Origin: a virus
Taxonomy: Duplodnaviria > Heunggongvirae > Uroviricota > Caudoviricetes
IMG/VR virus record: IMGVR_UViG_2541047831_000006
Reading direction: 5' to 3' (one strand)
Length of the DNA: 10,229 bases
Made by a program: the position numbers and the translations under genes. The notes under the pieces were generated by a model that did not search any database, was not told the origin of the DNA, and saw only the letters and a list, made by a program, of their open reading frames with translations. Of the stretch, positions 1-10,229 are shown one piece after another; the first letter of the stretch is position 1; each line of letters starts with the position of its first letter.

Positions 1-94
1 CTTGAGTCTTGAGTCTTGAGTCTTGAGTCTTGAGTCTTGAGTCTTGAGTCTTGAGTCTTGAGTCTTGAGTCTTGAGTCTTGAGTCTTGAGTCTT
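1..94 (-). repeat. Tandem heptanucleotide repeat, CTTGAGT on plus strand (AAGACTC on the minus coding strand); 13 complete units plus a partial unit; array truncated by the window edge
   Basis: Direct reading: positions 1-91 are 13 perfect CTTGAGT units followed by CTT. On the minus strand this follows ATGTT and encodes repeating RLKTQDS. Matches the known neuO poly-heptad phase-variation tract. Confidence 0.9.
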
Positions 95-99
95 AACAT
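1..99 (-). CDS. neuO: neuO 5' end (partial): phase-variable polysialic acid O-acetyltransferase; start codon at 99..97, gene continues beyond the window start
   Basis: Minus-strand ATG at 97-99 preceded by AGGA about 8 nt upstream, followed immediately by the AAGACTC heptads. Position directly downstream of an endosialidase tailspike gene, as in CUS-3-type K1 prophages. The rest of the gene is outside the window. Confidence 0.7.
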   Translation of the reverse strand, partial: MLRLKTQDSRLKTQDSRLKTQDSRLKTQDSRLK

Positions 100-252
100 A
101 TTAGTATCCTACGTTATTTTACCACTAGTTACTTTTCTTGTCATTAAAAAGCATTTAAATTTTTATATTTAATTTCGTTGACGTCAATGTTTTTTGCCAA
201 TGTACTTACTTCTTTATGTGATCAGTTCATATTTTTGACGCCAACGAAACAT
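100..252 (-). promoter_or_regulatory. AT-rich intergenic region between tailspike stop and neuO start; candidate neuO promoter (minus-strand -35 TTGACG at 182..187, -10 AAAAAT at 159..164) and 10-bp palindrome TTGACGTCAA (177..186)
   Basis: Sequence inspection only; promoter hexamers are approximate matches to sigma70 consensus. Confidence 0.3.
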
Positions 253-2714
253 TTAGTGCTTCCCTTCTATTAAGTCTAACCTAGCTTTTATTCTTTCTAT
301 TTCTCTGCGCTGCCATGCTGCCTCGATATAGAATAAGAGATCAGGTCTGACCCCCCATCTAGATCCTGCTGGCGTTATTTCAACGCGCTCAATGATGTCT
401 TCCATTACCATCACTGGATTATCATCCTCATCAACAATGATGCTCCCGTCATTATCAGTCAGCGGCATTTCCCTTTGGCCAGTAATGACGTCATCATATA
501 CTGCGGGATAATCGTCATAGCAAAGAAAGGCATAGCGGCATGTTGTGCTTTCTTCTTCCATGAGTCCGTGAGAAATAAGAACATCACGAAGTTGCTGCGC
601 GATTACACCATGATGTATCCTCGCCCCTTCTTCCCCCTTTATAGCGACAGCGTTCAGCCATTTATAAGCGATATACCTGACGTCACCCCAGGCATCCAGC
701 AATGTTTCGTCAGGAGAGACCGGCTCTGTCTTTAATGTTCCGTCACTGGTAACCACAGGATTGGAGCCAAGATAAACTATCGAGAACCTGTTTCCCGGAC
801 CACCAAGAGCATTTACATTATCAAGATAAGGTTTAACATCTCCGTTCTCAAAAAGATGTTCGAGTGCGTTATATACCGCGCGACGTGGAGTACTGCTTCT
901 GGAACCATGCAACGTTATCATTGCACCATCTGCTGAAGACGTTGTTTCACCGCCGCTAACGATTAATCTCTGAGCGGTAACATCATCAGACGGTACTTTC
1001 TTCGCAATAATGGCGTAATTACCCTCAAGTTTGACTTCCGCGCGAACTTGTCCTGATGTACCTGCATGGACAGTCAGTGACTGGACGGCAACATCATCTG
1101 TGAAATCAACGGGTACAGGAACCGTCCTCACGCCTGACGTCGACATAAAAGTAGGAAGCGTTCTGTTAGGAGTGGCTCCGTAGACAAAATCCCTTGAAAC
1201 AAATTCTTCCTGTTTAATTTTCACCCTGAAACAATACAAATCAGCCGGGTGACCATCGTGAACATAAGGATATTTTCTGTTGTTATCCCCTATGCTCCAT
1301 GGGTTTAGAAAGTCTTCCCCACCGAAAATGTAGTACAGCCAGTTGTCTTTGATACAAACTGAACCAACACCAACCGCAGAGTTAACTATTCCGCCCTGAT
1401 AAATCTGATCAGTAACATTAACCCACTCTACATTATCCAGACTCCACTCATTGACGTTAACTCTGGTCATAAATGTTCTTGGATAGTTTCCTGCATAACG
1501 GTTATCAGGTTCTCCTCCTTCCCACTCACCAAATGCGCGCTCACTGCCAAAAATAATCAGCTCATCGCCAACTTTGGCAAAAGGAAGGTTTGAGTGATGA
1601 ACATTATTTGGGAAGCGAAGAGAATTCCATGATGTACCTAAATCAGAGCTTCTGTGCAATGAACTACCGGGTTGAGTACTTAATGTCCCCCTGGTCGTCA
1701 GATACAGAATGCCATCATAATATTTTACACATGGCTCAGATGCATTCGCCTCATATTCTGCAGGTATGCGTCTGCGAACAAAGCTACCAGGAGAACCGAA
1801 AGCATCAGAGAAATAGAGTATCCCAAGCTCGCGTGGACCAATATCACCATTATGGTAGCCAACAGCAAAACTGTTATCGCTAATCGTCGCAAAACTGTGA
1901 ATCTCAGTAACAGGAGTGCTTCCGTCAACAAAAGAAGGAATAGTTCCAAGACTGGTTTTTCTCCATGGTGACGAGTGAAATGATGTACCAAAACTCCAGT
2001 ATCTACCCTCGTTATTCTGATCCACATCCTGGGTATTTTGCGTCGTAACTGTAAAAGTATTTTTATCAATAACAGTAGTCACCGTCATATTCCCGGTAAC
2101 ACCTGTAACACCAGAGTTTGAGAAGTTGACAAAATCACCAGCAAATAATCCGTGATCAGTAATGCGAATATAAGCGACTTGCTGATTTGCTGCTTTCGTT
2201 ATACCACCATAAACGCGAAGGCTGCGACTCATTGGGCGATCCCACAACTCTGCAACCTGCAGTTTATTTCCGCTCACGGTCCGCGTCTCAATTACAGCAA
2301 AAAGGCGATTTCTGACAACCCCCATACTCATGCAGTGATAGTTAACTGTGGGATAGTTTTCATGTAAATCTGTAAGCCATTCCGGCGTTGTCCAGGTCTT
2401 CCCGTCATCTCCTGAGCGAACCCATGCAACATGGAGGTTATTTACACCATGGCGGTCTCCAGCCATAAAAGGCGCATAGATGACATTGTCATATACAAAC
2501 GTTTTATCCTGCGTCCAGGCGTTGTACCACGGTGTATCTGTAATTTTAAATAACTCTCCCTGGATAAAATCTTCAGAAACATAAAAAAGAGGCTGACCCG
2601 GTATTCTCTCAAATAAAAAACGAGCATTTTTAAATCGACTGACATCTGGAAGAGTTGATACTTTAAAAGTAAGCCCTCGCCCATCTATCTTTTCACCACC
2701 TGTTGCAACAGAAA
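253..2714 (-). pseudogene. Endosialidase (endo-N-acetylneuraminidase) tailspike, 3' portion: catalytic region plus C-terminal intramolecular chaperone domain; separated from its 5' portion by IS911
   Basis: The 737-aa ORF (253..2466) aligns by eye to phage K1F endosialidase (DRHGV..HVSWV.SGDDG.TW.TPEWLTDLH..YPTVNYHCMSMGV, through LGSNPVVTSDG and the IHHGVIAQQLRDV chaperone region). The same frame stays open upstream of the first ATG through 2467..2714 (SVATGGEKIDGRGLTFKVSTLPDVSRFKNARFLFERIPGQPL...), so the ATG at 2466 is internal. The reading frame runs into the IS911 end at 2715. Confidence 0.85.
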
Positions 2715-2744
2715 TGAAGTGGTCAACAAAAACTGGCCACCGAG

Positions 2745-3892
<1,148 letters not shown>

Positions 3893-3964
3893 TATGGCAC
3901 CTGTGTTGTTCTGAGGTGAGCATATCACCTCTGTTCAGGTGGCCAAATTCAGTAAACCACTTCA

Positions 3965-4451
3965 AAAGTAATTCTGATAGAGCTGATGTATCATCATGAA
4001 CACCATCACCAATAGCCCCCCAACCTCTTACATCATAACTGTCTCTCCATCTTGCTATCTGAAGTTTTGGGTATTTATTCGCTCCATCTGGGTCTTCTAA
4101 TTGCTGCCGTAGTTGATCAGGATCATACTTCAGCACATTCTGGAAATAGAACTGCTGTACGCCATACGCATCGTACACAGCCATAGAATGGCCTTGCACA
4201 GTTACGAACTTGGCAATCCGTCCGTTATATACAGGGTAACCAGCAGCGTTAATGATGATTGGTTGCGAAACAGGAACGTGAGAGCCGTCTTCGTTCTCTA
4301 CATAAACCTGAATCCGGTTTTCAGGATTTACCGGGTCAGTGTCAATTTTACCGATATAAATTTTGCCATTGGCTACGGCTTTAAAAGAACGCGCCATAGT
4401 GAAGAGTTGCGAAGGCATCGATACAATCACATTGGCTGTAATGTCTGTCAT
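3965..4451 (-). pseudogene. Tailspike 5' portion: P22 gp9-like N-terminal head-binding domain followed by the start of the endosialidase region; reading frame runs into IS911
   Basis: N-terminus [11 protein letters not shown]...[21 protein letters not shown]...[10 protein letters not shown]...[13 protein letters not shown]...NVLKYDPDQ closely resembles the P22 tailspike head-binding domain. It then switches to endosialidase-like sequence ([20 protein letters not shown]) before the IS junction at 3964/3965. Start ATG at 4449..4451 with GGAG about 10 nt upstream. Confidence 0.85.
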
Positions 4452-4507
4452 TTAATTTGCTCCAGATGCAAAGAATCGCCGCAGCATGGCCACGGTGAAT
4501 TTTGGGC

Positions 4508-4532
4508 ATAAAAAAACCCAGCCGAAGCTGGG
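4508..4532 (-). terminator. Rho-independent terminator downstream of ant (minus strand): stem CCCAGC/GCTGGG with CGAA loop followed by a U-run
   Basis: Plus-strand sequence AAAAAAACCCAGCCGAAGCTGGG; on the minus strand the hairpin is followed by 7-8 T residues. Lies between the ant stop (4552) and the tailspike start (4451). Confidence 0.6.
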
Positions 4533-4551
4533 TCGTTGCGTTGGTTATCTG

Positions 4552-5454
4552 TCAGTAATTATGTACTGAAGGAGGTAATTCTTTATTCTTAAGTCTCATC
4601 CATGCGGAAAGATTCGTTGGTCCGTCTGGCTCATTGATATCAACATCTCGTGTGTGATTGATTAAAACGTCTCTCGCCATATCGATAATACGGGAGAACT
4701 CATAACCGCAGTCATGACATCTGCCGGAATAGTTCGATTGAATTTGTTTTAGCGCCGGATACAGTTCGCGGAATAATGCCTGTGAGCGGTTGGCATAATC
4801 CCATAGCCATACAAGGCTGTTTGCTTCTTTTGCAGAAAGCTCGTTGGTTTTCTTCTCTTGTTTGCCGATGAACTCACCTTCAAGCACTACCCTGTGGATG
4901 TACTCTACTGCTTGTGGTATCTGAGATGCATCAAGCTCTTCAATACTTTCCACATTGAAACGCTGATGAATCATTGCATAAGCTTCTGGGTACATTAGAT
5001 GCTTTTTGCTGACTAGCATATTTACAGCATCACGAAGCGGAGTCCTGTCATCAACAGATGTTTTCTTCCGTGCATTTGCTGCCTCTCCCTTTGTCCAGTA
5101 GTCATGCAGCACAGTAAAGCATTCTTCCTGGTACTGAATCAGTTTATCGCGGATGTCAGCACGAACTTTCTCAGGGTTGATGCTGAACAGCCATCCATTT
5201 AACTTCTTCAAAGGAAGGCAGAGTAGCTTACGAAGCTTACCATCAGCGGCAACCATGTTCATATGAACACAGTTGAATTTGCTAATCTGCTTCATGAGTT
5301 TTGTTTGCTGCGTTGACCAGCTCATTCCGAGGTTTTCAACGATTGGCTTCATCGCAACATATGCAACTCCGGCAGCCATGGCGGTGATAATTTGCTGACC
5401 GTTGAATGGCACGTAAGAGGTGTTCACTGCTTCTAAAATTGCTATACTATTCAT
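4552..5454 (-). CDS. ant: Antirepressor Ant (P22 immI-type), about 300 aa; likely start at internal Met ([12 protein letters not shown]...) rather than the ORF-track start at 5520
   Basis: The ATG at 5452..5454 has GGAGA 8 nt upstream, while the ORF-track ATG at 5520 has no Shine-Dalgarno sequence. Gene order arc-ant-tailspike matches the P22 immI region. Identification as Ant rests on this context and on my recollection of the P22 Ant N-terminus. Confidence 0.7.
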
Positions 5455-5455
5455 G

Positions 5456-5522
5456 TTGGTTTTTCTCCACGGATTTACCGACAACCGAAGCCCTGACTGT
5501 TCCAGCAGTTGGGGCTTCACTG
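5456..5522 (+). ncRNA. Candidate sar-like antisense RNA (about 65-70 nt) complementary to the ant ribosome-binding region
   Basis: Plus-strand extended -10 element TGcTATACT (5441..5448) just inside the ant start. Downstream plus-strand hairpin GAAGCCC (5487..5493) / GGGCTTC (5512..5518) followed by a U-rich tract (TGTTTTGATTTCTTTG). The transcript would cover the ant Shine-Dalgarno (plus-strand TCTCC 5464..5468). Analogous to P22 sar. Confidence 0.3.
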
Positions 5523-5686
5523 TTTTGATTTCTTTGCCGCATCAAGCATCACTTCTGAAAACGTGCGCTTGCCACTGAATACTCTTTCTCTTCTCAATTT
5601 TTCGTTCGTGCCAAATGATTCGCCATGAACAAAATTTGGTCTTAAAATGGTAATCGCAATCTCTTTGACTACTGCATCCAAGCGAA

Positions 5687-5839
5687 TCACACCGTTACCC
5701 CCTCTCTCTTCAGGCTGTCTATCAGGCGCTTGATAACCTCTGAGTTAAACGACCTGCACTCTTCCTTTGCCCTGCTACCGATAGCATCCTTTAACGACTG
5801 CGGCATCCTTACCAAAATCTTACTTATTTCTTTCTCCAT
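5687..5839 (-). CDS. arc: Arc-like ribbon-helix-helix repressor (50 aa from the Met with the strong RBS)
   Basis: MEKEISKILVRMPQSLKDAIGSRAKEECRSFNSEVIKRLIDSLKREG resembles P22 Arc (..MPQFNLRWPREVLDLVRKVAEENGRSVNSEIYQRVMESFKKEG). GGAGG lies 6 nt upstream of the ATG at 5837..5839. The ORF-track start at 5875 lacks an RBS. Confidence 0.75.
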   Translation of the reverse strand: MEKEISKILVRMPQSLKDAIGSRAKEECRSFNSEVIKRLIDSLKREGVTV

Positions 5840-5953
5840 GTTACCCTCCACGCAAACAACTCTTTTCGAATACAAAAGATAGCAAAGTGAGTATATCTAG
5901 TCAAAATTTTTTTGCATACACTTTGCTATCAAATTGAATACCAAAGGTGTTAT
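5840..5953. promoter_or_regulatory. Divergent Pant/Pmnt-like promoter-operator region with a perfect 12-bp inverted repeat pair GATAGCAAAGTG (5878..5889) and CACTTTGCTATC (5919..5930)
   Basis: Minus-strand candidate promoter: -35 TTGACT (plus 5899..5904), 17-bp spacer, -10 TATCTT (plus 5876..5881) reading toward arc. Plus-strand candidate -35 TTGCAT (5913..5918) reading toward mnt. One copy of the 12-mer overlaps each promoter. Confidence 0.5.
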
Positions 5954-6202
5954 ATGGCAAAGGGTGTGTCAATTTCTCCAACTACGGTAAGAATCCCTGA
6001 ATCTTTACGCGAGGCTCTTGCTGTCAGAGCATCAAAAAATGGTCGCTCTGTTAACTCCGAGATCGTCATGATTTTGCAAGCCGCGATTGATGAAGATAGG
6101 TCGCCAAAGTCAGTTGAGTCATTTGCTCAGCAAGAAGCTGATAAATTCAAAGAGGCGCTACTTGAGACGCTAAAGACCATGTATGCTAAGGATGAAAAAT
6201 AA
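5954..6202 (+). CDS. mnt: Mnt-like ribbon-helix-helix repressor (82 aa from MAKG...)
   Basis: VRIPESLREALAVRASKNGRSVNSEIVMILQAAI and C-terminal EALLETLKTMYAK resemble P22 Mnt (FRMPMEVREKLKFRAEANGRSMNSELLQIVQDAL ... TLKDLYKK). Divergent from arc-ant as in P22 immI. RBS AAAGG upstream of the ATG at 5954. Confidence 0.75.
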   Translation: MAKGVSISPTTVRIPESLREALAVRASKNGRSVNSEIVMILQAAIDEDRSPKSVESFAQQEADKFKEALLETLKTMYAKDEK

Positions 6203-6738
6203 TGCTGCACACAATTCATTTCTTATGCCCTGTTAACACTGCCACTGTTGGGCAACTTCAGAACCACTGTCTCACCGCATTATCTCAAGGCGCAACTGAA
6301 TTAAATATCCATATATCAAGTCAGGGAGGGGAAACTGCTGCTGGCTTTACTGCGTATAACTTTCTTAAGTCACTCCCTGTTACCGTTAGAACTCACAACA
6401 TAAGCAATGTTGAATCCATAGCTAATATCGTTTTCCTGGCTGGCTCAGAACGTTTCGCAAACCCATTATCAAGATTCCTGTTACATCCTCTATTATGGTG
6501 CTTTGCCTCCCCAGCCGCCGACCATGCCAGATTGAGAGAGTACGGGAAATGCCTCGATAACGATCTTGATCGCTTCGTTGAGACGTTCAATATCGACATC
6601 GGAACCCATATTAGGTGGGCATCCCTGATAGCAGACTCGACCATTTTGGATGCTAACAAGGCTCTTGAGCATGGCATAATTAATTCCATAAAAACTGCAA
6701 GGCTGGCATCCAATCAGGCAAACTGGTGGGTTGTTTGA
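6202..6738 (+). CDS. ClpP-fold (peptidase S14-like) serine peptidase homolog, 178 aa, translationally coupled to mnt
   Basis: Start ATG overlaps the mnt stop (TAATG). Motifs ISSQGGETAAGF, NVESIANIVFLAGS, RFLLHP and DLDRF align by eye to ClpP INSPGGVITAG, GQAASMGAFLLTAG, RVMIHQP and TERDRF, with candidate Ser-His-Asp triad residues conserved. Lacks the ClpP N-terminal axial segment. Confidence 0.65.
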   Translation: MLHTIHFLCPVNTATVGQLQNHCLTALSQGATELNIHISSQGGETAAGFTAYNFLKSLPVTVRTHNISNVESIANIVFLAGSERFANPLSRFLLHPLLWCFASPAADHARLREYGKCLDNDLDRFVETFNIDIGTHIRWASLIADSTILDANKALEHGIINSIKTARLASNQANWWVV

Positions 6739-6761
6739 TGGGTAAATCATGATTACTCCTT

Positions 6762-6785
6762 ATAAAAAACCCACCTGACGGTGGG
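6762..6785 (-). terminator. Rho-independent terminator immediately after the YafO-like gene (minus strand); may also weakly terminate the convergent plus-strand ClpP-like transcript
   Basis: Stem CCCACC (6770..6775) / GGTGGG (6780..6785), loop TGAC. On the minus strand it is followed by TTTTTT (plus-strand A-run 6764..6769); on the plus strand only TTT follows. Confidence 0.6.
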
Positions 6786-6786
6786 T

Positions 6787-7236
6787 TTAGTCAAACATAG
6801 TGTTTCTAAAGTCTCTCGCATACCCTGCTAACACTCTCATTCTATTATGATTGTTAGCAGACATGTGAGCTACAGGATGAAAAAGAGCAATCAATGAATA
6901 CCTGTTCTCATCAAAAAGATTTTGTGCATAAACGAGAGCGGTATTGGATGTTTTATGCCACTGCAACTTTTGCGGTGTGCTGATATCTGTGCCATTTTTT
7001 ATTGGCTCAAATTTATTTTCACCAATTGCTAAATGAAGGTGCATAAGGCCTGCATCTTCAATATCAGGAGGTCGATGATAAGAGGTGTCTCTGCCAAAAT
7101 AGCTGGGCAACGTTCCCGTAGACTTGTAGATGATAAAATCATCTACAAGTGTTTGTTTTAAATCAGGAAACTCAACAAAAACCGGGGAGAAAAAATAGTC
7201 AAAACTATCCTGATTATATTCCACGGTTACTTGCAT
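6787..7236 (-). CDS. YafO-family-like toxin homolog (putative ribosome-dependent mRNA interferase), 149 aa; second gene of a two-gene operon
   Basis: By recollection of E. coli YafO: FIIYKSTGTLPSYFGRD vs FISYKRDGVLPDIFGRD; HLHLA vs HIHLA; ALVYAQNLFDE vs HLVYCQGAFDE; SLIALFHP vs LLIAILKP; NHNRMRVLAGYARDFR vs NNQMHKIGKMAEAFRM. GAGG RBS 6 nt upstream overlaps the upstream gene's TGA. Needs a database search to confirm. Confidence 0.5.
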   Translation of the reverse strand: MQVTVEYNQDSFDYFFSPVFVEFPDLKQTLVDDFIIYKSTGTLPSYFGRDTSYHRPPDIEDAGLMHLHLAIGENKFEPIKNGTDISTPQKLQWHKTSNTALVYAQNLFDENRYSLIALFHPVAHMSANNHNRMRVLAGYARDFRNTMFD

Positions 7237-7244
7237 GTTTTACC

Positions 7245-7811
7245 TCAGTGGAAGTTACCAGAGTGAAACACACGAGTCCCGTGCTCAGCAAGCGCACGCA
7301 AACCAGCCATATCTACGGAACTATCAAAAACAACCGGAACACATGAGCGTTGTTTAATAAGACTATTCAGGTTGGTTACGGCAGATCTGGCATCAGCAAC
7401 AACGATATAGATATCTCTTGCGATCTCTTTAAAATCAGCAGAAGCTTCTTTGAATACCGATTTCATTGCCCCTTCAAGTCCTCTCAATTGATGCTCTATC
7501 AATCGAGACTTTTCTGGTTCAATGATAGACAACACATTGTCTACATTCTCATCGGTAGCGTTTGCAAGAACACGATAAGCGTATTTCAGCATTCGAGACA
7601 ATTCTTTAATCGAAGACACCGCCTCATGAAGCTCATCATTAGCCCGTTCACTGCTGAATGAGGATTGATGGTAAGCGTGCTGAACGTTATCAGTAACAAC
7701 CACCTCACAACTGAACGCAGAAGCTTGCTGTAATAGCAAACCTATTGCGACTCCAGCTTTGGCAGCGTTCAAGCTAAACATTTCATCAATCCCATTAGTC
7801 TCATTGCTCAT
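7245..7811 (-). CDS. Hypothetical protein (188 aa from the Met with the AGGAGG RBS), first gene of the operon with the YafO-like gene; candidate antitoxin or sensor partner
   Basis: Strong RBS AAGGAGG 5-6 nt upstream of the ATG at 7809..7811; the ORF-track start at 7841 lacks one. Predicted largely helical; no motif I can assign. Its stop is 8 nt upstream of the YafO-like start. Confidence 0.55.
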   Translation of the reverse strand: MSNETNGIDEMFSLNAAKAGVAIGLLLQQASAFSCEVVVTDNVQHAYHQSSFSSERANDELHEAVSSIKELSRMLKYAYRVLANATDENVDNVLSIIEPEKSRLIEHQLRGLEGAMKSVFKEASADFKEIARDIYIVVADARSAVTNLNSLIKQRSCVPVVFDSSVDMAGLRALAEHGTRVFHSGNFH

Positions 7812-7986
7812 ACAAACCTCCTTCTTATCGGAGATTATCAATAGCTATGCATCCATTGAATACACGCTATGCGCAATAAGTTTACGTCACGTGATATCAT
7901 TATGCAACCACCGTTCTATCACCGACTAACTTTACTCCCACTCCTATACATCATCTGGTATCCTGCGCAAAACTAAGGAGGTTGGT
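7812..7986. promoter_or_regulatory. Divergent intergenic region between the hypothetical/YafO-like operon and the membrane-protein gene; contains overlapping palindromes TCACGTGA (7887..7894) and GATATC (7893..7898)
   Basis: Strong Shine-Dalgarno sequences on both flanks imply promoters for both divergent transcription units lie here. No confident -10/-35 assignment. Confidence 0.3.
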
Positions 7987-8337
7987 GTGAATGCTCAGTC
8001 TGTCATCATGGTTTTCCTTGGGCTGATTGTCGCAAAACTATATCCAGACTGGTGGAAAGGGGCATTAGCTACTGTCGCCATCTATTTGCTTTTATCCATC
8101 GTTAAGCGATCACTCGCTGAGACCGTAAATCAAGCAAAACGTTTCTCATTTAAGAGTTTAATAAACTATGTTACTGGGCTTATTTTTTGCCTTTCAATTC
8201 TGATCGCTTCGGCTTTTTTGCCCGTATCAATAGCTAATTTTTTTGGCGCACCATATGAGGTAGGTTATCTATTCTCTGTTTCCTGTCTTGCCATTGCTCT
8301 TCTTTACCTGTGGACGAGATCAAAGAATAAAAATTAG
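7987..8337 (+). CDS. Small integral membrane protein (116 aa, about 4 predicted transmembrane helices), GTG start
   Basis: AAGGAGG (7974..7980) 6 nt upstream of the GTG at 7987. Four hydrophobic segments (SVIMVFLGLIVAKLY; ALATVAIYLLLSIV; YVTGLIFCLSILIASAFL; YLFSVSCLAIALLYLW). Confidence 0.6.
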   Translation: MNAQSVIMVFLGLIVAKLYPDWWKGALATVAIYLLLSIVKRSLAETVNQAKRFSFKSLINYVTGLIFCLSILIASAFLPVSIANFFGAPYEVGYLFSVSCLAIALLYLWTRSKNKN

Positions 8338-8354
8338 CCATCCGTGGCTGCCAG

Positions 8355-8630
8355 TTATTGAGCTTCTTTTTGTGATGCCTGTGCGACTCTGGTGAGCGAT
8401 TGTGTGACCGTACTGATCGCTCTGTCATATGCTGTGCTACCTTTTGGCGTATTTGCCAGACGTAACAAGGCATTTCGTATAACAGGGCTTTCGTATGCCT
8501 TCGCAGCTCCTCCTACGACACCAGCAGCAGGAACAACAAACGCAGCCGTTTTTAGCATCCCCGCTAATACTGCTGCGTTTATGATGCCACCACCAACTAA
8601 CAATCCATAAAGCTGCTGACCATTTAAGTT
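8355..8630 (-). pseudogene. Possible 3' fragment of a gene truncated by IS911 copy 2 (Gly/Ala-rich hydrophobic segment, then a polar C-terminus)
   Basis: The minus-strand frame is open from the IS boundary (8630) through to the stop at 8355. The only in-frame starts are TTG (8603) and an ATG (8558) with a weak RBS. No target-site duplication at this IS copy. Confidence 0.3.
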
Positions 8631-8702
8631 TGAAGTGGTTTACTGAATTTGGCCACCTGAACAGAGGTGATATGCTCACCTCAGAACAACACAGGTGCCA
8701 TA

Positions 8703-9850
<1,148 letters not shown>

Positions 9851-9961
9851 CTCGGTGGCCAGTTTTTGTTGACCACTTCACTATGACCACTGGATGCTGT
9901 GGGCGCAGATAGCACATGCAGACGTAACTAATATTCGAATTGAAGAACTGAAAGAACACCA

Positions 9962-9985
9962 AGCCGCCTGATGGCGGTTTTTTAT
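9962..9985 (+). terminator. Candidate rho-independent terminator (plus strand): stem AGCCGCC/GGCGGTT, loop TGAT, then a T-run
   Basis: AAGCCGCCTGATGGCGGTTTTTTATT. The upstream gene it would terminate is not evident, possibly lost at the IS911 junction. Confidence 0.35.
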
Positions 9986-9993
9986 TGCCTGAT

Positions 9994-10009
9994 TTGCAGG
10001 TTCGATTCC
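9994..10009 (+). other. tRNA 3'-end-like motif (TTGCAGGTTCGATTCC, T-arm-like); possible integrase attachment-site core or remnant resembling the 3' part of a tRNA-Arg gene
   Basis: GGTTCGATTCC is a canonical T-loop sequence, but the flanks do not complete a tRNA cloverleaf. From memory the 16-mer matches the argW T-arm; this is unverified. Confidence 0.3.
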
Positions 10010-10028: not shown

Positions 10029-10229
10029 ATGCAACACGAACTACAACCTGATTCACTGGTTGATTTGAAATTCATCATGGCCGATACTGGCTTCGGTAAA
10101 ACCTTCATCTATGACCGGATTAAGTCCGGCGACCTGCCAAAAGCCAAAGTTATCCACGGGCGAGCAAGATGGTTATATCGTGACCATTGTGAATTCAAAA
10201 ATAAGCTCTTAAGCCGCGCCAATGGGTAA
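10029..10229 (+). CDS. AlpA-family (phage excisionase-like, MerR-type HTH) transcriptional regulator, 66 aa
   Basis: GGAGA 8 nt upstream of the ATG. The segment LKFIMADTGFGKTFIYDRIKSGDLPKAKVIHGRARWLYRDHCEFKNKL has the AlpA-like pattern. Such genes typically sit in integrase-bearing islands. Confidence 0.55.
   Translation: MQHELQPDSLVDLKFIMADTGFGKTFIYDRIKSGDLPKAKVIHGRARWLYRDHCEFKNKLLSRANG

Follow-up and report, generated by a model that had tools for sequence, protein, structure and literature searches.

A heptanucleotide tract at the edge of a CUS-3 prophage remnant is very probably the phase-variable 5' end of neuO

Background

Contingency loci in Haemophilus and Neisseria contain tetranucleotide and homopolymer tracts within genes for surface modification. 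The neuO gene of Escherichia coli K1 prophage CUS-3 is similar to these loci in that slippage in an intragenic repeat shifts the reading frame, which results in stochastic ON/OFF expression of a surface-modifying enzyme. It differs from them in that the repeat unit is 7 nt long, the gene is phage-borne, and the tract is itself translated as an N-terminal extension which tunes activity (PMC3046976).

Among solved structures, the nearest homologue of the NeuO catalytic domain other than NeuO itself is OatWY, the sialate O-acetyltransferase of Neisseria meningitidis W-135/Y (PDB 2WLC; E 1.1e-30). Both enzymes have a left-handed beta-helix hexapeptide fold and acetylate a sialic-acid capsule. The solved OatWY chain is 215 aa long and aligns to the catalytic domain of NeuO only (query residues 165-348); OatWY is not known to be phage-borne.

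The oac gene of the P22-like phage Sf6 encodes a serotype-converting O-antigen acetyltransferase. Like neuO, it is a lysogenic conversion gene beside the tailspike/int end and modifies the polysaccharide that is bound by the phage's own tailspike. Unlike neuO, it encodes a membrane protein of the acyltransferase-3 family and is not known to have repeat-based phase variation.

The neuO poly-psi locus of the E. coli K1 prophage CUS-3 was described by Deszo et al. 2005 (as cited in PMC3046976 and PMC13001214). The tract is defined as starting two nucleotides after the start codon, contains 2-93 units in natural isolates and has been described as unique to NeuO; slippage by a single unit is the commonest event (PMC3046976). 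Catalytic efficiency is linear with heptad number, though poly-psi is disordered in the crystal (PMC3046976). It is well established that phase variation of neuO is one of the factors that determine how antigenic the K1 capsule is, how well the cell resists K1 phages and neutrophils, and how sensitive it is to serum (PMC13001214, PMC9659370). In strain MS7163, experiments have shown that neuO functions, that it switches within the population with ON/OFF capsule O-acetylation, and that it affects how cells survive phages, neutrophils and serum (PMC13001214).

The stretch of DNA analysed here (10,229 nt; hereafter the window) begins with a tract which has the same AAGACTC unit, the same start two bases after the ATG and the same RLKTQDS heptad as CUS-3. 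While CUS-3 is 40.2 kb long, the prophage in the window is a remnant which carries ISEc52 in the tailspike gene and has lost ~31 kb. The tract is the already-described neuO contingency locus; its anatomy holds nothing new, and the known mechanism gains nothing new from the window. The added value is modest: the switch persists unchanged within an IS-degraded, immobile prophage remnant.

Identity of the repeat tract

The features at the left end of the window are as follows.

1-94, minus strand: neuO poly-psi variable-number tandem repeat (VNTR), 13 perfect AAGACTC units and 3 nt (AAG) of a 14th (repeat finder and script; CP000711.1 annotation)
95-99, minus strand: neuO start codon ATG (99-97) and TT before the first unit

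Tandem Repeats Finder reports a perfect period-7 array at 1-94 (13.4 copies, 100% matches, no indels). Counted by script on the minus strand, the ATG (99-97) is followed by TT, 13 complete AAGACTC units and AAG at the window edge. A 21-nt probe of three units has 11 matches, all of them in 4-94, compared with 0.00 expected from 200 dinucleotide-preserving shuffles. In CUS-3, the last unit is directly followed by G (GTTTTCC...); since the window instead has AAG after unit 13, a 14th unit has begun and the tract has at least 14 units. The first-pass annotation had proposed at least 13 perfect units after ATGTT, encoding RLKTQDS; this is borne out, with the count raised by one. It had also held that the ON/OFF state is not readable from the window, which is correct: the array reaches the window edge, so the copy number is a lower bound only.

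Three AAGACTC units encode one RLKTQDS heptad. In the ATG frame, the tract translates as MLRLKTQDSRLKTQDS..., with the pattern MLRLKTQDS(RLKTQDS)n. As 7 and 3 have no common factor, the same cyclic heptad is read in each of the three coding-strand frames. The repeat contains no stops in any of these frames, while TGA is found in all three antisense frames.

Direct BLAST places window 1-2714 at positions 2274-4987 of CP000711.1 (phage CUS-3, host E. coli RS218) with 100% identity and zero mismatches; the upstream intergenic region and the part of the endosialidase gene contained in 1-2714 are thus also 100% identical to CUS-3. In the CP000711.1 record, the tract carries the annotation 'neuO poly(psi) domain' with 19 copies of the heptanucleotide repeat AAGACTC, which upholds its earlier assignment to the 5' end of neuO. 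The tract lies directly 3' of the endosialidase tailspike gene in a CUS-3 prophage, the attR end of which is at 9881-10009. It is almost certainly the 5' VNTR of neuO, the switch of the polysialic-acid O-acetyltransferase gene that CUS-3, a P22-like prophage in E. coli K1, carries as cargo.

An assembly artefact, with the contig broken in the repeat or the repeat collapsed, could also produce a run of 13.4 units. The tract does touch the window edge, such repeats are a frequent cause of breaks or collapse in short-read assemblies, and the older UM146 assembly has an odd AAGGTT interruption in its tract. An artefact is nevertheless hardly credible here. Two identical 1250-nt IS copies have been assembled through, which points to a finished or long-read assembly; in such an assembly, contigs would run through a tract of a few hundred nt. 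The other window end is exactly at the stop codon of torI (10029-10229), suggesting an arbitrary or annotation-based cut. The identity of the tract as neuO poly-psi is unaffected by any assembly artefact.

The neuO body beyond the window edge

The catalytic body of neuO is outside the window, and its description here rests on PE144, the closest complete genome (100% identity over 88% of the window). In PE144, the tract is directly followed by the rest of an annotated 356-aa acyltransferase. The best structure match of this protein is the crystal of NeuO itself (PDB 3JQY, 'polysialic acid O-acetyltransferase'; E 5.5e-160), and the next-best is meningococcal OatWY; the Pfam Hexapep domain is present. 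Leaving aside the IS, window 1-8634 has 100% identity to strain MS7163.

From these relatives, an intact neuO body probably lies just past the window edge in the source genome. Leftward sequence would then show the rest of the repeats, GTTTTCCGTTGATGATAATGGG... and ~650 nt of neuO, the end of which would be ~240 nt before intS. An ON allele would read n mod 3 = 0, then FSVDDNGSGNVF...KLTQ*.

If the neuO body had instead been deleted or interrupted (e.g. by another ISEc52), the tract would be an orphan 5' fragment and the repeat would control nothing. The high IS activity in this lineage gives the idea some grounds: the prophage is heavily degraded, with one ISEc52 interrupting the tailspike gene and another at the ~31-kb deletion; the tailspike gene of SF-088 has been hit independently by ISEc52; and AREA_R504 carries an IS3-family element inside the neuO tract. 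However, a neuO body is found across the tract in every complete genome carrying the leader (window 95-138) among the 60 listed out of 194 records, and the neuO body is uninterrupted in both PE144 and SF-088, the closest relatives to share the deletion. An orphan fragment is therefore quite improbable, and a disrupted neuO just past the window edge is unlikely.

Reading frame and switching

The gene was rebuilt in silico from the CUS-3 downstream sequence and a series of unit numbers. Full-length NeuO is obtained at n = 0, 3, 12, 15, 18, 21 and 60, with a length of 216 + 7n/3 aa. At n = 3k+1, a stop is found 3 codons past the tract and the product ends ...RLVFR*; at n = 3k+2, the stop is 18 codons past the tract. 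RS218 has 19 units, which gives a 49-aa stub, and PE144 has 60 units, which gives 356 aa. The claim that full length requires a multiple of three units is thus confirmed by the in silico series, by both strains and by the published statements of the rule (PMC3046976, PMC13001214).

Slippage as the cause of variation, the enzymatic activity with its heptad dependence, and the phenotypes are all taken from the literature. Following that model, perfect 7-nt units would mispair in replication, so that units are gained or lost. Because 7 is not divisible by three, each unit step would bring the catalytic domain into frame with the ATG or take it out of frame. Alleles with n = 3k would give full-length NeuO (OAc+), and those with n = 3k+1 or 3k+2 would give short stubs (OAc-). 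In the ON state, the tract would be translated as k RLKTQDS heptads, raising catalytic efficiency with k. The tract would thus be both a switch and a gain control, since the frame is set by n and the heptads raise efficiency in proportion to k.

Variation of the tract between strains

Tract length in other strains was measured with an 800-nt query made of both tract flanks without the repeats; the span between the flanks gives the length. Both flanks are present in 156 of 5,426 complete E. coli genomes. Tract length is a multiple of 7 in 43 of the 45 genomes sampled. The 43 genomes have flanks 99-100% identical and contain 5-60 units (median 23). Their three frame classes are almost equally filled (14/14/15), which corresponds to 67% OFF. 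Both the OFF share and the unit range agree with published figures (65.6% OFF, range 3-53 units, 64 genomes; PMC13001214). Several-fold differences in tract length beside near-identical flanks fit a hypermutable slipped-strand switch.

In relatives that share the window's ISEc52 site in the injection gene, the unit numbers are 60 (PE144), 47 (SF-088), 28 (ESBLEC_HM50) and 15 (AH21I008). Because close relatives differ in unit number, the state of the window tract is not inferable from them. The repeat count of an assembly captures a mixed population at a single moment; for example, 93% of MS7163 cells were found to have 21 units, 1.9% to have 20 and 5.4% to have 22 (2026 study, PMC13001214).

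The two sampled genomes whose tract length is not divisible by 7 are UM146 and HH97. In UM146 (NC_017632.1), AAGGTT interrupts the tract after 9 units, at about 770-790 of the locus, and the tract is 139 nt long. The interruption could be real, and would then make the tract more stable, or it could be a mistake of an older assembly.

In AREA_R504 (NZ_CP123315.1), the IS3-family element is at 3400-4930 of the locus and splits the heptad tract, leaving 12 units plus AAG next to the ATG and about 17 units beyond the element. Its sibling AREA_504 has an uninterrupted tract of 29 units. The IS insertion in AREA_R504 thus turns a reversible switch OFF by an irreversible route. A minority neuO allele group (99.5% identity) starts with ATGTC instead of ATGTT.

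Public annotation of the neuO locus is inconsistent. The gene is annotated as a 'general stress protein' in phiv205-1 (MN340231.1); in the OFF-state strains UM146, SF-088 and AREA_R504, the only part of it with an annotation is a C-terminal 'acyltransferase' fragment of 111 aa. For annotators, a 'frameshifted' or short 'acyltransferase' at this locus indicates a reversible OFF state and not a dead gene.

Leader and expression signals

The gap between the tailspike stop and the neuO ATG is 153 nt long and contains the following candidate signals.

107-110, minus strand: Shine-Dalgarno-like AGGA, 7 nt upstream of the ATG (read from the sequence; putative function)
116-144, minus strand: candidate sigma-70-like promoter, ATGACA, 17-nt spacer and TG-extended TAAAAT, 10/12 matches (consensus match only)
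159-187, minus strand: second candidate sigma-70-like promoter, TTGACG, 17-nt spacer and AAAAAT, 9/12 matches (consensus match only)

Both sigma-70-like candidates are inside the gap; the one at 116-144 is very near the ribosome-binding site. It is likely that neuO has its own promoter within 100-252, as expression in lysogens implies. A search for a terminator-like (intrinsic) site between the tailspike stop and neuO found none; co-transcription of neuO with the late operon may therefore also occur. Transcription of neuO is regulated by DsdC (PMC9659370). In relatives, dsdC is found just past the right end of the region equivalent to the window.

Prophage context

Upstream of neuO, the window contains the following prophage and IS features.

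253-2714, minus strand: CUS-3 endosialidase tailspike gene (siaK1), 3' part (100% identity to CP000711.1; Pfam domains)
2715-3964, plus strand: ISEc52 (IS3 family, 1250 nt) in the tailspike gene (named from the RefSeq annotation of the identical PE144 copy)
3965-4451, minus strand: tailspike gene, 5' part, head-binding N-terminus
8631-9880, minus strand: second ISEc52, identical, inverted, without target duplication
9881-10009, plus strand: last 129 nt of CUS-3, with the attR core at 9994-10009 (100% identical to CP000711.1 40079-40207)

The tailspike ORF at 253-2466 adjoins neuO on its upstream side and is on the same strand; the whole gene reaches 4451. Its 3' part contains the Pfam domains End_beta_propel (1.6e-210), End_tail_spike, End_beta_barrel and Peptidase_S74 (the S74 chaperone domain). 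ISEc52 separates this part from the 5' part and is flanked by a clean 3-bp target duplication, AAA. A 30-mer across the junction of tailspike gene and ISEc52 has 0 matches in each of IMG/VR contigs, GTDB species genomes and JGI metagenomes; with a 400-nt junction query, 0 of 5,426 complete E. coli genomes have at least 80% coverage. In SF-088, the independent ISEc52 insertion interrupts the tailspike gene at a different site, near window position 2212.

Identity to RS218 CUS-3 falls to 94% at 3965-4884, compared with 100% at 1-2714, and mismatches begin at 4091. This places a mosaic boundary inside the N-terminal (head-binding) part of the tailspike, near boundary sequences annotated in the CUS-3 record.

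The second ISEc52 has a fragment of an injection-protein gene on its left (8355-8630) and CUS-3 position 40079 on its right, 129 nt from attR. Because it joins the injection-gene remnant to the attR end of CUS-3, ~31 kb has been deleted; the genes lost are those for injection, head, lysis, replication and immunity. The prophage in the window is a non-viable remnant. PE144 and SF-088 share the deletion junction with the window. Related genomes have 17-22 places each that match ISEc52; two copies are in the window.

An inversion between the two inverted ISEc52 copies was considered and rejected: the segment is colinear with S88, MS7163 and PE144, and the AAA duplication of the first copy is intact. 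An inverted repeat reported as '1257-nt, 100%' includes 7 nt of flanking sequence; the element itself is 1250 nt long.

A speculative reading, more doubtful than not, is that ISEc52 reduced CUS-3 to a ~12-kb remnant unable to make phage, while the neuO switch, its leader and the upstream region stayed base-perfect. The 'mobile contingency locus' would then have become fixed as a selected host gene, and loss of the endosialidase would reflect domestication and not random decay. The same tentative reading includes an unusually long tract in the window, since the sister genomes have 47 and 60 units; if so, the enzyme would be very active when ON. The substrate of the endosialidase is the same capsule that NeuO modifies.

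Window 4885-8623 has no BLAST match in the RS218 CUS-3 record, and this segment is therefore mosaic cargo. From the RefSeq annotation of the identical PE144 sequence, it contains genes for a ClpP-like protease subunit (6202-6738, plus strand) and a YafO-family toxin (6787-7236, minus strand). The injection-protein remnant contains a 16-nt tandem repeat at 8463-8496 (2.1 copies, 88% matches), which is probably insignificant.
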